Positions 11,928 to 62,007 of a stretch of 64,000 nt of DNA are shown here, piece by piece. The stretch comes from a phage. Positions within the stretch are counted from its first letter, which is position 1. Each line of letters begins with the position of its first letter. Location of the stretch: the sequence record NC_102531.1. One strand, 5' to 3'. The translations under genes and the position numbers were made by a program. Below the pieces are notes generated by a model that was given only the letters and a program-made list of their open reading frames with translations, had not been told where the DNA came from and did no database searches.

Positions 11928-11956
11928 TTGACACCACCACCAGATCTATATATAAT
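11928..11956 (+). promoter_or_regulatory. consensus sigma70 promoter
   Basis: TTGACA 11928..11933, exact 17-nt spacer, TATAAT 11951..11956; then AGGAG and ATG 11985. The ORF track's TTG start at 11928 is the -35 box. Confidence 0.6.
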
Positions 11957-56471: not shown

Positions 56472-58028
56472 TTAATTTTCCATGTTGGATATGGAATTAT
56501 CTCTGGTTGATGACATCTTAGAAGTGCCGTTGCCAGTGGATCCTGCAGCCATTCCATCACCAGCCCTACTAATGTCCTGGCCCAAGAGCTTCATCAGCTC
56601 TTCCTGATCCATGTCCTCGTCAAATCTTTCATCAAACCCGCCTACTTCAAGAATCTTATTAATTACCGCAGGAGTTTTTGGCAAGTAACCTACAGCACCG
56701 ATCCTCTGGACAAACTTGGAGAAGCTCTCCATATCCACTTCTTCAATCAGACCAGGTTTCAGTTTAGGCATATCATCATCTTCAAGGATGATACCATTCA
56801 ATGCCAGAAGCTGTGGAATAAGATCTTTATTGAAGGCCTCAGTGATAATATCTATATCACGCTGAACAAAATGACCATGGATAGACTGTTTTGACTCAGA
56901 CAGAGAGAAGGATCCAACGTTATCGTTACCGAGGTTAATAAAGCCAGCACCGAAACGGTCAAGAATCGCCTTCTTACGGGCATCAATCAAATCTTTAGTG
57001 GAATACTGCTTACCCATACCGTCAACCCCCTTCAGGGTCATGGAGTAAAGCTCTTTACCAGACTTATCTCTATCAGACGGAAGTATAAAGAAACTTTGCT
57101 CACCACTATGGGCGTTTGCTGCGTCAAGCATAAGGTCTGCAACCATCCTCCCTTCCATTGAATTCGGGTCAATGCTGGCCTTGTTCAAAATATTGGAAGG
57201 AATTTTCAGCTCAAGCACACCACCAAGGTCTTTGGAACAGCCAACAACCTCAAGGTTTTCAATCAGAACTTTCTCACGGAAAGATCTGTAGCAACCTATC
57301 ATCGGTGACACACCTGCGGGGTTAGATTCTGTTCCTGACAGGGTCATGAGCATAAGCTTTTTAGCAGGGATGAAAATTTCAGGCTCATTAAAGCCTTTTG
57401 AAGGCATTGCAGCAAGAGGTCCAGCCCAGCGTGCATTCTGAGTGTTTAGAAATGCATTAGGTGATTGATAAATACCTGTCAGTGTTCTACTATTCTTGTC
57501 AAAGACAAACGGCTCTGATCTGGACAAACTGGCCTGAGGTCGGAATGCAATTTTATCAATAAGAAGCATCCCGGCATATTTACCTTCTTTCTCTCTGCGG
57601 TATACTTTCTCAAACAGTGAAAAACCATACTCGTTAAAGGTAGCCGCGCTTCTTGCAATATCTCGAAGAGTTTGTTGGTTTGCCAAATTACGCAAAGAAT
57701 ACTCTATAAGCTCGGCAGCTTTCTTAGAGTCTTCACTTTTAACATTATAAAGGATCTTAAAATCATTGAATGCTTTCGTGATGAAAACATATTTTGTATC
57801 TAAGGCAGTAGCAACTGTGGAATCACATTTCATAGTCTCCACTGTAGCAATCAGTTGAGGCCAACGCAATTCCTCAACCATCATAGATTGCGATTCTGCC
57901 ATAATTTGGGAAAGTGCGCCAGAACCGATCTCACTCATACGAACATTATGAGTTGGTGCGCCTGCGTTCCCAGATTTATTCACAGTTTTGGCTGTGGCGT
58001 TGTGTTTCCTGCGGTTCTTTTTGGACAC
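56472..58028 (-). CDS. portal protein
   Basis: 518 aa between terminase and scaffold/capsid genes; basic N-terminus and acidic C-terminus; positional call. Confidence 0.55.
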   Translation of the reverse strand: MSKKNRRKHNATAKTVNKSGNAGAPTHNVRMSEIGSGALSQIMAESQSMMVEELRWPQLIATVETMKCDSTVATALDTKYVFITKAFNDFKILYNVKSEDSKKAAELIEYSLRNLANQQTLRDIARSAATFNEYGFSLFEKVYRREKEGKYAGMLLIDKIAFRPQASLSRSEPFVFDKNSRTLTGIYQSPNAFLNTQNARWAGPLAAMPSKGFNEPEIFIPAKKLMLMTLSGTESNPAGVSPMIGCYRSFREKVLIENLEVVGCSKDLGGVLELKIPSNILNKASIDPNSMEGRMVADLMLDAANAHSGEQSFFILPSDRDKSGKELYSMTLKGVDGMGKQYSTKDLIDARKKAILDRFGAGFINLGNDNVGSFSLSESKQSIHGHFVQRDIDIITEAFNKDLIPQLLALNGIILEDDDMPKLKPGLIEEVDMESFSKFVQRIGAVGYLPKTPAVINKILEVGGFDERFDEDMDQEELMKLLGQDISRAGDGMAAGSTGNGTSKMSSTRDNSISNMEN

Positions 58029-58060
58029 AAGCTTTACCCCTCAAAACAGTATAACAAAAT

Positions 58061-58080
58061 AGCCCTCGTGTTAGAGGGCT
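58061..58080 (-). terminator. hairpin plus U-rich tract between terminase and portal
   Basis: agccctc-gtgtta-gagggct on plus; on minus transcript followed by auuuuguuauacuguuuu. Confidence 0.35.
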
Positions 58081-58130
58081 AGTATCTCCGATTACTCTAT
58101 TCTACCACATCTAATTAAGATTGGCAACAC

Positions 58131-59255
58131 TTAGATAAAACGCTTGAACATAGAAGGTGATGAGATTGATGGAATCACACAAGGAAGTGCTACCTCCTCT
58201 TTCTCCAGGAAATTAATCGCAGAAGCTACACAGTCAGCCCAGTCGTCTTTTCTGTTAAATGTTGATCTTTCCCCGTTGAATTTTTCAAGTTCGGTCAGAA
58301 ATGCTTCCAGAGTATCAGGATGGAAACTGGATTTTACAATCCTTACCATTCCTTGTTGGGCAAGATTGGCAAAAGGTGAGAACCTTGTCAGTTTAGACTT
58401 GTTGGAAGGCATTGGGTCTTCTTCAACCCTAAACCCTTCGGCAAGCAAGGATCTGGAGGAGGTTAAGAACTCACTCTTACCTGCCTGACCGGGGTCCACA
58501 GAGAATACGATTATACAATCATCACCATCAAACTGCGCCTGTTTCCTGATGATCACATCTCGTTCACCAGCCTTTTTACAGAACTTACCTTCCAGACCTG
58601 TGGAATACCTCCCGTCATCCACGTTCTCAGGACAATAATCCCCGGACAGGTAATAAAAGCCGTCGCTATCTTTACTTACCTTAACACTGGCGGTAAAGTC
58701 AGGAAATTTATTACCGGAAGTTCTCTCGGTTCCTGCTTTATCCCATGCCCTGCAAGACACTGATCCAAGGGGTACTCTATCGGCATCACGAAGGAAAGAT
58801 CTTTGAAAATAGTTTGCACCCTCAGGCTTTGCAAACCAGTTACCATGGAGAAGCTGAGCTTTTTCAAGCTCGGGCAGACCTTCAAGGAAAGCAAGGTATT
58901 CTGGGTTGTCTCTCAAGCAGACAGGATTATCGAATATTGTTGCGCCTATAAACGAGAATGACAACGGTCTCGGCTTGATCTCTACACCCAGTCCGTTAAC
59001 AGTGGTGTATTTCTCTATCAACTCTTCTTTAGAGTCTCCCCAGATAAATTCACCGTCGCGTCGGATAAAATATCTTTTCTTACCGCATTTCTCCGGATCT
59101 GGATACCCCTCATCGTCCAACCACCACCTAACCAGTTTGGCAAGCATGTGTTCTGAATCGGGGTTACAGCTGATAACCATTCTTGATGGATACTTTGACT
59201 GAGATCGCAGACGAGACATCAGGTAGTCTATCTGCTCCCATTCGAATTGTGTCGT
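58131..59255 (-). CDS. terminase large subunit, C-terminal part (exon 2 or second half of split gene)
   Basis: ORF track 58131..59219; frame stays open upstream to 59255 (..TTQFEWEQIDYLMSRLRSQSKYPSRMVISCNPD..), as expected directly after a Walker B motif. 5' boundary unresolved. Confidence 0.55.
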   Translation of the reverse strand, partial: TTQFEWEQIDYLMSRLRSQSKYPSRMVISCNPDSEHMLAKLVRWWLDDEGYPDPEKCGKKRYFIRRDGEFIWGDSKEELIEKYTTVNGLGVEIKPRPLSFSFIGATIFDNPVCLRDNPEYLAFLEGLPELEKAQLLHGNWFAKPEGANYFQRSFLRDADRVPLGSVSCRAWDKAGTERTSGNKFPDFTASVKVSKDSDGFYYLSGDYCPENVDDGRYSTGLEGKFCKKAGERDVIIRKQAQFDGDDCIIVFSVDPGQAGKSEFLTSSRSLLAEGFRVEEDPMPSNKSKLTRFSPFANLAQQGMVRIVKSSFHPDTLEAFLTELEKFNGERSTFNRKDDWADCVASAINFLEKEEVALPCVIPSISSPSMFKRFI

Positions 59256-60131
59256 TTATGTTCGGGCAAGGTCGCTAGTCTTGCCCCGCCATTTTCAGGC
59301 AGCTGCATGTCTCCATGCAGACCAGACTATATCTTATGAATGTGTAAATACTCTGCCGCTCTAAGAATAGTTTCCTCATCTTCTTGGAAGAAACCTAAAG
59401 CTCTGTTGCATTTATCACAAAGCAACCCTCTTACAGCACCAGTTTTATGGTCATGATCAACACAAAAGAAATCTCTGTACCCTTGCATCCTATACTCATT
59501 AAGAGATATTCTACAAATGGCACACTTATGATCTTGATCTGAGAGTAGACGATAGTATTCATCTTTTGTTATGTGAAATTTCTTCTCAATCTGATAAAAC
59601 TTTTCACACATCTTACACCTGTTCGTAACCAGATATACTTTACCATAGTCACGTTTTGTGTAAAAACTATCAGCGAGCATACTTTCATGACAAGATTTGC
59701 ATTCAAAAAGTTCACCTTTCTTCAGCAAGTCTTGAATAAACAATGCTGCGTCATCTCTCTTAACCATATTTTTATTTTTACGAGATCCACCCTTCCTGTA
59801 GTACATATAGCATTCCTTGCATGTACCTGAGTATCCATCCTTGCTCTTAGATGATAAAAAGAAATCATCAATAGGCAGAACTCTTTGGCAATCCATACAT
59901 TTTTAGTATTACACATTCACCCTCCCGTTTCGAATCGCTTGATTCTACGTCTTTCGACTAGTCGTTGAACGTTCATCCTCTCGGATGCTTCGCTGCGGAT
60001 TATCTAAATTAACACACTGTTACCCTACCTTCGATCTCTCTTCGAAGCCTCTATTATGTTACCATAACAGGTTGGTGGTGTCAATAATAAAGATTTCCCC
60101 GCAATTAGGGAGGTTTTACGAGAGCTACAAA
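59256..60131 (-). mobile_element. intervening sequence splitting the large terminase gene (putative group I intron or free-standing homing-endonuclease insertion)
   Basis: ~0.9 kb between the stop after Walker B (60132) and resumption of terminase-like frame; contains HNH ORF flanked by ORF-free, GC-richer segments. Splice sites not determined. Confidence 0.5.
59327..59896 (-). CDS. HNH homing endonuclease (endonuclease VII-like)
   Basis: 189 aa; Cys clusters CKECY, CKSCH, CKMCE plus FFCVDHDHKTGAVRGLLCDKCNRALG, a classic EndoVII/HNH zinc-finger motif. Confidence 0.65.
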   Translation of the reverse strand: MDCQRVLPIDDFFLSSKSKDGYSGTCKECYMYYRKGGSRKNKNMVKRDDAALFIQDLLKKGELFECKSCHESMLADSFYTKRDYGKVYLVTNRCKMCEKFYQIEKKFHITKDEYYRLLSDQDHKCAICRISLNEYRMQGYRDFFCVDHDHKTGAVRGLLCDKCNRALGFFQEDEETILRAAEYLHIHKI

Positions 60132-60560
60132 TTAACCCTCATCGAAGCAAACCATGGTGTACTCAAGACCCTGATGGTTAAGCTTATCTTGCACATACTC
60201 CATATGGCAGTATTTTACAACAGCTCCCTTTTTGCTTCTATCCCACTTACCAGTGTTCGGATCAAACCGTGGAAAAATGAACTTATGATCCTTCTCTCTG
60301 AACTTTGGCTTAATGTTTTCAGGCAGATCACTATAAATAGCTACTGCTTTAGGCCATAGTCCACCCTCACCTTCCAACTGTGGGGTTGTTCTTCGGAACA
60401 TAACCACAGAGCTGTGTGGGTCATCAATAATTTTAAGTGGCATCAACTGCAAGAGGAACGACTTGCCAGACCCTGCGGCACCGCCGATTACCAAGATATC
60501 TGCATCGTTTTCGAGGATCATCTTCTGCTTTTCAGAACACGGTCCGTAAATCTTAGACAT
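60132..60560 (-). CDS. terminase large subunit, N-terminal ATPase part (exon 1)
   Basis: 142 aa; Walker A VIGGAAGSGKSFLL; ends ...EYTMVCFDEG (Walker B) immediately before a stop codon. Confidence 0.6.
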   Translation of the reverse strand: MSKIYGPCSEKQKMILENDADILVIGGAAGSGKSFLLQLMPLKIIDDPHSSVVMFRRTTPQLEGEGGLWPKAVAIYSDLPENIKPKFREKDHKFIFPRFDPNTGKWDRSKKGAVVKYCHMEYVQDKLNHQGLEYTMVCFDEG

Positions 60561-60847
60561 TAACCTCTCTCCTTTGGAAACAGTGTTCTAATATAGTCTT
60601 GCAAAATGATCAATTTAGCTCTATCATTGCTACAAGACAGATTATTATCCCTCATAATGCCAGAATTCACTGCATCTGGCGCACCTTTCTTCAAAGGCAT
60701 AGCTTTAGCAGGTGGTTTCATGGCACCTTCTGGGGGTTTAACAATCAACCTTCCTACATCCGGAGGGTCAATCTTGTATTCTCTCTCAACGCTGGTTGCA
60801 CACCCACATAATAACAAGCACGCAATAAACAGTGTGGCAACTCTCAT
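60560..60847 (-). CDS. o-spanin (Rz1-like outer-membrane lipoprotein)
   Basis: 95 aa; signal with lipobox-like FIACLLLCGC; Pro-rich mature part; conserved Cys near C-terminus; overlaps i-spanin by 4 nt. Confidence 0.55.
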   Translation of the reverse strand: MRVATLFIACLLLCGCATSVEREYKIDPPDVGRLIVKPPEGAMKPPAKAMPLKKGAPDAVNSGIMRDNNLSCSNDRAKLIILQDYIRTLFPKERG

Positions 60848-61903: not shown

Positions 61904-61910
61904 AAAAAGG

Positions 61911-62007
61911 TGCTAGGTGATGGAATCGAACCACCTATGTATTCAACGACTACCTCGTCTATTTTCAGGATTAAAAATCCTCGCCCTTGCCAAAGGGCTT
62001 ACCTAGC
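61911..62007 (-). tRNA. atypical 97-nt tRNA-like element (perfect acceptor and T arm, expanded core; identity unresolved, possibly anticodon TTT)
   Basis: Acceptor GCTAGGT/ACCTAGC 7/7, D-arm GCCC-TTTGGCAA-GGGC, T-arm GGTGG-TTCGATT-CCATC; only plausible anticodon loop is TTTTTAA, followed by a 30-nt region with hairpin GACGA-GGTAG-TCGTT. No CCA. Confidence 0.35.

Follow-up and report, generated by a model that had tools for sequence, protein, structure and literature searches.

The question raised by this locus is how a large terminase gene (terL) is to be read when it breaks off directly after its Walker B motif and resumes only beyond an open reading frame (ORF) of a different kind. The gene lies on the minus strand of a stretch of 64,000 nucleotides (nt) of phage DNA (sequence record NC_102531.1), which is referred to here as the window and whose numbering is used throughout. 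An earlier inspection of the letters and of a list of ORFs (the sequence-only reading) had offered two explanations: a self-splicing group I intron with a homing endonuclease, or a gene that a free-standing homing endonuclease has split. The analysis reported here points strongly to the first, and we conclude with high confidence that terL carries a mobile group I intron with its own homing-endonuclease gene. The window phage is an rV5-like E. coli phage (genus Vequintavirus); the locus is 98-98.6% identical to that of phages HdK5, inoa, APECc02 and JES2013, and no identical record was found among the database matches. The coordinates of all features of the locus are given in Table 1.

The interrupted terminase gene

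Both terminase frames that had been proposed are borne out by the ORF list, the sequence and the Pfam profiles. The first ORF (60560..60132) ends with ...MVCFDEG and a TAA stop codon, and its product corresponds to positions 2-104 of the profile Terminase_6N; the frame is open again from 59255 to 58131, and this last piece represents positions 111-211 of the same profile, followed by Terminase_6C. The two halves score 25.6 and 31.7 bits, whereas the joined exons give a single continuous Terminase_6N match of 72.2 bits. Exon 1 contains the Walker A (GAAGSGKS) and Walker B (VCFDE) motifs, and exon 2 supplies what remains of the ATPase domain as well as an RNase H-like nuclease domain. Exon 1 closes with the codons GAT GAG GGT (DEG; last base, 60135) and exon 2 opens with ACA CAA TTC (TQF; first base, 59252); the predicted ligated junction, GGT/ACA, reads GATGAGGGT followed directly by ACACAATTC. 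Precise excision restores the host reading frame, and the ligated exons (1548 nt) encode a TerL protein of 515 amino acids (aa).

Alignment with uninterrupted terminase genes, which the sequence-only reading had suggested as a check, places the insertion exactly at GGT/ACA. The phages AlexBoehm and Murica are intron-less, and their terL genes are annotated with exactly the 1548 nt predicted for the ligated exons. The predicted spliced TerL shows 1-2 differences from theirs over 508 compared residues (1/508 for AlexBoehm), and the peptide across the junction, VCFDEG-TQFEWEQ, is identical in both.

A group I intron between the exons

The RNA between the exons is matched by the Rfam covariance model RF00028 (group I introns) from 60144 to 59303, over all model positions 1-253, with 44.3 bits (Rfam gathering score, 50) and with an E-value of 1.2e-9 locally and of 5e-8 over the whole window. 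ORF-less natural alleles of the same intron, which have the same core, score 84 bits. The interruption is not a product of chance, because the joined exons match Terminase_6N continuously and the match of the RNA between them to the group I model is full-length. The core is also similar by blastn to the nrdB and td introns of phage T4, to introns of phiKZ and to many other phage introns; the core strings UUCAACGACUA and AAGAUAUAGUC are common to the window intron and the T4 nrdB/td-type introns. The intron starts with UAA, an in-frame stop codon, and its last base is the G at 59253; these boundaries are fixed by comparison with the intron-less alleles. The anatomy of the locus, the covariance-model family and, through the natural alleles, the exact boundaries of the intron are direct observations.

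Two other types of insert were considered and rejected. A group II intron has no Rfam match in 58900-60400, where RF00028 is the sole hit at E-values up to 1, and the inserted ORF encodes an endonuclease, not a reverse transcriptase; an Rfam search of the whole window gave only tRNAs besides RF00028. An intein is incompatible with an insert that opens with an in-frame stop codon and holds its endonuclease ORF in a different frame.

Among close relatives the locus occurs in three states: an intron-less terL of 1548 nt, a 319-nt ORF-less intron, and an intron of 882 or 883 nt with an ORF. The ORF-less state bears directly on the second explanation offered by the sequence-only reading. A free-standing endonuclease that splits terL was rejected, because the 319-nt ORF-less allele, itself a complete ribozyme core, breaks terL at the same nucleotide. 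The related view that the gene is split and no splicing takes place, the two terminase halves being translated separately and assembling afterwards, has a model in NrdA of Aeromonas phage Aeh1, which is reported to be split by mobE and to assemble from separately translated halves. Functional split genes of this kind do occur in phages (discussed in PMC7344957), and exon 2 of the window holds an ATG at 59219. However, this ATG has no properly spaced ribosome-binding site, and a protein initiated there would lack TQFEWEQIDYL, a stretch that the intron-less alleles conserve; furthermore, the break falls inside the ATPase fold, directly after Walker B, and a complete group I ribozyme core lies between the halves, while the ORF-less alleles break terL at the same nucleotide with 319 nt. 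Separate translation of the halves is therefore considered extremely improbable, and the group I intron is retained as the explanation for the interrupted gene.

Secondary structure of the intron

The helices of the intron (Table 1) were located and each was checked by script, and an unconstrained minimum free energy (MFE) fold was run on the ORF-less allele; this fold recovers the helices except P7, which crosses P3. In P1, the exon bases GAGGGU and the intron bases UA pair with the internal guide UAGCUCUC, and a U·G wobble is formed by the splice-site U60135 with G60125. No P2 is present in the window intron. The presence of P7.1 and P7.2 between P7 and P3, together with the resemblance by blastn to the nrdB and td introns of T4, makes the intron subgroup IA-like, and probably IA2-like.

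Since the copies of this intron (intron 1) are about 98% identical, individual structure-preserving changes are given instead of covariation statistics. Among ten alleles, P5b shows a compensatory change from U-A to C-G as well as a change from G·U to G-C, and the changes in the tetraloops of P6a and P7.1 stay within the GNRA pattern. In P5a of phage slur12 there are two one-sided changes, and pairing is preserved.

From this structure the following course of expression of terL is expected. Transcription would run through exon 1, intron and exon 2, and translation of the unspliced RNA would end at the UAA that forms the first intron codon. The intron would fold as a subgroup-IA-type ribozyme (P1 and P3 to P9.2, with P7.1 and P7.2), and would excise itself in the usual way, by guanosine-initiated transesterification in two steps. 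Splicing would thereby unite ...GAU GAG GGU with ACA CAA UUC... to an mRNA for the 515-aa TerL with an unbroken Walker B region (VCFDEG-TQFEWEQ).

Alleles at the two insertion sites in terL

The distribution of the alleles was estimated from roughly 113 E. coli Vequintavirus records, and all counts are approximate. The insertion site of intron 1 (site 1) is empty in about 66 of these records, 29 carry intron 1 with the endonuclease ORF, and about 18-23 carry the 319-nt intron without ORF, as found in naswa, RudolfGeigy and rV5. All three alleles, intron-less, ORF-less and ORF-containing, are found side by side among phages that are about 94-98% identical at the locus. In the ORF-less alleles, the whole P8 element is replaced by an 18-nt hairpin, AAGC...GCUU. 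A simple deletion of the ORF-containing allele was rejected as the origin of the ORF-less allele, as the P8 stem of the former (GAAUGUGUAA.../...UUACACAUUC) differs from this hairpin.

The intron-less site reads ...GATGAGGGCACGCAGTTC..., and differs from the window by three silent changes at 60135, 59250 and 59247, i.e. GGC ACG CAG versus GGT/ACA CAA in the window. The base at -1 is U in 10/10 intron-containing alleles examined and C in the 2/2 intron-less alleles that were read base by base; positions +3 and +6 vary among the intron-containing alleles. This silent cluster could reflect the requirement for the U·G pair in P1, co-conversion of the flanks, or resistance of the empty site to the endonuclease.

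A second terL intron occurs in some relatives, and its insertion site is vacant in the window. The second intron of rV5 and HdK5 has 979 nt and contains a gene for an endonuclease of the HNH_3/HTH type; the RudolfGeigy copy has no ORF and matches RF00028 with 95.6 bits.

As a side observation, 18 GenBank records named 'Campylobacter phage' (MG0656xx, e.g. MG065677 and MG065662) match the window at 58000-60700. Among the matches listed they are about 98% identical, and they look like coliphages that were carried along or mislabelled.

The endonuclease gene and its frameshift

The ORF within the intron, described in the sequence-only reading as an HNH ORF of the EndoVII type, is open in the window from 59896 to 59327 (189 aa) and encodes a protein that matches Pfam PF02945 (Endonuclease_7) with an E-value of 1.6e-21 and 76 bits (cut-off, 23.6). 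The PHROG assignment is to 'endonuclease VII' families, and similarity was found to the structures of the restriction enzyme Hpy99I (residues 57-192) and of T4 Endo VII. The catalytic motif CAIC...VDHDH...VRG...CDKCN is read directly from the translation, and is preceded by an N-terminal part with two CxxC...CxxC modules; the enzyme is assigned to the Endo VII-motif (DHHRN, beta-beta-alpha-metal) type. The ORF has a GC content of 33-36%, compared to about 40-49% in the ORF-free flanks and in the exons, in agreement with the GC-richer flanks that had been noted before. No close relative of the endonuclease in other genes or phages was found among the matches listed beyond the 29 Vequintavirus terL copies.

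In relatives the endonuclease has 196 aa and starts at the ATG that corresponds to 59916, five bases past a GGGAGGG Shine-Dalgarno sequence. The Shine-Dalgarno sequence is the 3' strand of P3 (59921..59926), the start codon is located in the P8 stem, and the stop codon UAG in P7; translation of the endonuclease from the folded precursor would be low, because both the Shine-Dalgarno sequence and the start codon are engaged in these helices. In a mixed infection, the endonuclease would be expected to cut intron-less terL near the insertion site, and recombinational repair would then copy the intron into the cut allele (homing).

The window copy differs from all other copies by a run of five A residues (59900..59904) that is one base shorter. 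The 29/29 database matches span 75 nt against the 74-nt query, and none of them is 100% identical; the four copies that were read base by base have a run of six (A6), an intron of 883 nt and the 196-aa ORF. The lack of this base causes a frameshift after codon 5, unique among the 30 copies. The Shine-Dalgarno-linked ATG at 59916 is consequently out of frame, and the window does not contain an intact translatable endonuclease gene from this start; the remaining ATG at 59896 is without a Shine-Dalgarno sequence, and a protein initiated there lacks Cys7 of the first CxxC pair.

The A5 run has one of two origins: a sequencing error in the homopolymer, or an inactivating mutation of very recent date. 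If the deletion is real, the intron would splice but be in decay: the endonuclease would not be made, or would be made without its first zinc-binding cysteine, and the intron could not home by itself. Such an intron would represent the degeneration stage of the homing cycle, on its way to the ORF-less or the intron-less state, and both of these states are common within the same phage group. The uniform extra base in the 29/29 copies and the poor start at 59896 fit this view; however, one-base homopolymer errors are a frequent artefact of sequencing and assembly, the remaining ORF is intact, the repaired window protein is 100% identical to that of inoa, and the ORF-less alleles, with their different P8 stem sequence, are not simple deletions of the ORF. 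Decay is a tentative interpretation, to which we assign slightly less than an even chance. Because the rest of the ORF is intact and the repaired protein is identical to that of inoa, the lesion, if real, must be very recent. Unless the A5 run is a sequencing error, the window intron would still splice but would probably no longer have a homing enzyme of its own. More speculatively, expression of the endonuclease could be switched on and off by slippage in the A5/A6 run that follows codon 4.

A promoter-like site inside the intron

The sequence-only reading had noted a -35-like motif within the element that matches the context of a promoter at 11928. The match is an exact repeat: the window contains two copies of the 12-mer TTGACACCACCA and no more, one at 11928 on the plus strand, where it is part of a perfect TTGACA-17-TATAAT promoter, and one at 60084..60073 on the minus strand. 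The latter copy begins a sigma-70 promoter-like site (Table 1), located about 130 nt upstream from the start codon of the endonuclease gene, which scores best in 3.5 kb with 10/12 matches and the extended -10 TG. Sites of this type are enriched about 6-fold in the window (16, compared to 2.7 in shuffled sequences), and at least three of the 16 coincide with promoters predicted for rV5. The promoter table published for rV5 holds TTGACA...GGTAACAT and ...TGGTAAAAT promoters (PMC3606486). On these grounds, a function of the intron site as a promoter appears plausible.

The site could, in addition, yield a transcript with an exposed ribosome-binding site. In transcripts from 60084-60056, P1 would be missing together with the 5' strands of P3, P4 and P5, and these transcripts would be unable to splice; as the 5' strand of P3 is missing, the ribosome-binding site of the endonuclease would be accessible. 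A sigma-70 promoter in the P5 extension might in this way act as a switch between a 'ribozyme' RNA and an 'endonuclease mRNA', a proposal that we regard as speculative and rather unlikely.

The match of TTGACA...TGGTAACAT might instead be a by-product of the P5a/P5b structure; in that case, terL transcripts that read through the intron would be the sole source of endonuclease expression. P5a has TTGACAC as its 5' strand, and TAACAT extends over the loop and the 3' strand of P5b; the ORF-less allele of slur12 has TTAATA as its hexamer and keeps the P5a pairing. On the other hand, the slur12 intron is without ORF and would not need a promoter, and the site's rank as the best sigma-70 match in 3.5 kb (with the extended -10), the 6-fold enrichment and the coincidence with rV5 promoters speak against a mere by-product, as does the expression of the intron endonuclease genes of phage T4 from promoters internal to the introns. 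In keeping with a by-product, the list of the rV5 authors contains no promoter at this position, their search having covered only regions upstream of genes (PMC3606486). We consider the chances of the by-product explanation to be evenly balanced.

Weight of the assignment

Several points weigh against a mobile, self-splicing intron in the window. The RF00028 score of the window copy is under the Rfam gathering threshold, which is due to the 581-nt insert in the P8 loop for which the model has to pay. A P10 pairing is possible between ACA of exon 2 and the guide bases U6-G7-U8, with just 3 bp. The window intron has two private changes that may influence its folding, U to G at intron position 110 in the P5 extension and the deletion in the A run. 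Relatives of the endonuclease beyond the 29 Vequintavirus terL copies are below 60% identity, at about 30-47% among the matches listed. Finally, splicing of this intron in this phage is a prediction that we infer from its sequence features and its alleles. The full-length covariance-model match, the canonical features of the splice sites and the colinear intron-less sister alleles nevertheless bear out the group I intron with homing endonuclease that the sequence-only reading had offered as its first option.

Features of the locus and its surroundings

Table 1. Features of the terL locus in the window, with paired strands of helices separated by a slash
Feature	Position	Strand	Description	Basis
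terL exon 1	60135..60560	(-)	142 codons, last codon GGT	ORF list; Pfam; colinear with AlexBoehm and Murica terL
terL exon 2	58131..59252	(-)	373 codons and stop	Pfam Terminase_6N and Terminase_6C
Group I intron	59253..60134	(-)	882 nt, subgroup IA-like	RF00028 match; helices; intron-less alleles
P1 hairpin	60120..60140 (60140-60133 / 60127-60120)	(-)	8/8 standard pairs	Script
P3	60113-60108 / 59926-59921	(-)	CCUCCC / GGGAGG, 6/6 Watson-Crick pairs	Script
P4	60103-60098 / 59999-59994	(-)		Script
P5	60093-60091 / 60005-60003	(-)	Bears three-way extension P5a/b/c	Script; MFE fold
P5a	60084-60078 / 60015-60009	(-)		Script; MFE fold
P5b	60070-60063 / 60058-60051	(-)	GUAA loop	Script; MFE fold
P5c	60047-60042 / 60034-60029	(-)		Script; MFE fold
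P6	59993-59992 / 59970-59969	(-)		Script
P6a	59987-59983 / 59978-59974	(-)	GAGA loop	Script
P7	59963-59959 / 59329-59325	(-)	GACUA / UAGUC, 5/5 pairs; guanosine-binding helix	Script
P7.1	59958-59949	(-)	GUC/GAC with GAAA loop	Script
P7.2	59945-59932	(-)	GAAUC/GAUUC	Script
P8	59336..59920 (59920-59909 / 59347-59336)	(-)	12-bp stem, 12/12 standard pairs; loop holds endonuclease ORF	Script
P9	59320-59303	(-)	GAGA loop	cmscan alignment; script; MFE fold
P9.1	59302-59286	(-)		cmscan alignment; script; MFE fold
P9.2	59286-59264	(-)	Followed by 3' tail to terminal G 59253	cmscan alignment; script; MFE fold
Endonuclease gene, Endo VII-motif (DHHRN)	59327..59916	(-)	Ancestral ATG 59916-59914	PF02945; PHROG; structures
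A5 run	59900..59904	(-)	One base shorter than 29/29 database copies	Alignment; ORF comparison
Sigma-70 promoter-like site	60056..60084	(-)	TTGACA-17-TAACAT, extended -10 TG, inside P5a/P5b	
Second terL intron insertion site	58935..58936	(-)	Vacant in the window	Alignment

The interval between terL and the portal gene contains a promoter-like site at 58099-58127 (-), which reads TTGCCA-17-TAGAAT and has the TG, and at 58060-58081 (-) a hairpin that resembles a strong terminator, TAGCCCTC...GAGGGCTA with a T-run behind it. On the other side of terL, a tRNA-like gene of 99 nt at 61909-62007 (-) lies inside a tRNA cluster (Pro, Met, Thr, ?, Ser, Tyr, Arg); ARAGORN assigns it a four-base anticodon, 'atcc', the Rfam tRNA model gives just 35.5 bits, and relatives annotate it as tRNA-OTHER.

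Comparison with known systems

The closest known system is phage rV5, for which a section 'Introns in terminase' and an entry 'TerL (spliced), 515 aa' in Table S3 have been published (Kropinski et al. 2013, Virol J 10:76, PMC3606486); in its record NC_011041, terL is annotated as a three-piece join. Intron 1 of rV5 is in the same gene and at the same insertion nucleotide as the window intron, between GGT and ACA, with the same junction and a spliced product of 515 aa, and the core is the same, the rV5 copy differing from the ORF-less intron of naswa at 4/319 positions. In contrast to the window, intron 1 of rV5 has no ORF and its P8 is the 18-nt hairpin, and rV5 has the second intron of 979 nt with the HNH_3/HTH endonuclease gene. 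The same intron with the endonuclease gene is present in JES2013, APECc02, inoa, HdK5, DrSchubert, WalterGehring, HeinrichReichert and MaxBurger (95-98.6% DNA identity across the locus). The records of the last four, which are BASEL phages, join the terL exons and name the ORF 'putative homing endonuclease'. These ORF-containing alleles differ from the 882-nt, frameshifted window copy by their length of 883 nt and the 196-aa ORF in the four that were read fully.

The T4 introns in nrdB, td and nrdD/sunY belong to subgroup IA2, and their enzymes are of the GIY-YIG (I-TevI, I-TevII) or the classical HNH type (I-TevIII). They share with the window intron the core strings given above and the P9 hairpin (blastn), an endonuclease ORF in a peripheral loop and an in-frame stop after the 5' splice site; unlike them, the window intron is in another host gene, has no P2, and holds its ORF in P8, where it encodes an enzyme of the Endo VII-motif type.

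The Endo VII-motif 'DHHRN' family was defined by Fang et al. (2018, Mob DNA 9:27, PMC6083498), who listed the JES-2013 protein as intron-encoded and grouped enzymes of this type in an endonuclease clade with intron-encoded members. F-CphI and its DHHRN relatives resemble the window enzyme in the C-terminal Endo VII motif with CxxC, DHDH, R and CxxC-N. F-CphI itself is free-standing, beside the psbA intron of cyanophage S-PM2, and is biochemically characterised, whereas the rV5-type enzymes are known from sequence.

Splicing of a terL intron has been demonstrated by reverse transcription PCR and sequencing for Pectobacterium phage CB7 (Certrevirus, Vequintavirinae; Buttimer et al. 2020, PMC7344957). 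The CB7 element (L011, 372-1350) is likewise a group I intron (RF00028, 35.2 bits) with an endonuclease gene in the Walker B region of a homologous TerL; however, it is inserted 6 nt upstream (VD/EGTQF, not DEG/TQF) and its HNH ORF lies upstream of P7. As a different element at a different position, it was rejected as direct experimental proof for the window intron; its location 6 nt upstream of the rV5 site means that two unrelated introns target the same TerL Walker B codons. The terL group I intron of Lactobacillus phage LL-H (Mikkonen and Alatossava 1995), to which PMC3606486 refers as a precedent, was the first reported in a phage large-terminase gene; LL-H is an unrelated siphovirus of a Gram-positive host.

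The intron and its endonuclease are thus already known from the literature and from GenBank for rV5-like phages, and nothing in the locus is conceptually new. Specific to the window are the frameshifted endonuclease gene, the lack of a second intron and, within the P5 extension, a single private base change. The analysis is mainly of value for annotation: in many of the GenBank records for rV5-like phages, the locus is entered as two "terminase" genes and a "recombination endonuclease VII", and should instead read as one spliced terL with an intron-encoded homing endonuclease. In addition, the locus provides a natural series for the homing cycle, with no intron, an ORF-less intron, an ORF-containing intron and, in the window, a frameshifted one, and with a second intron present in one copy or not at all.

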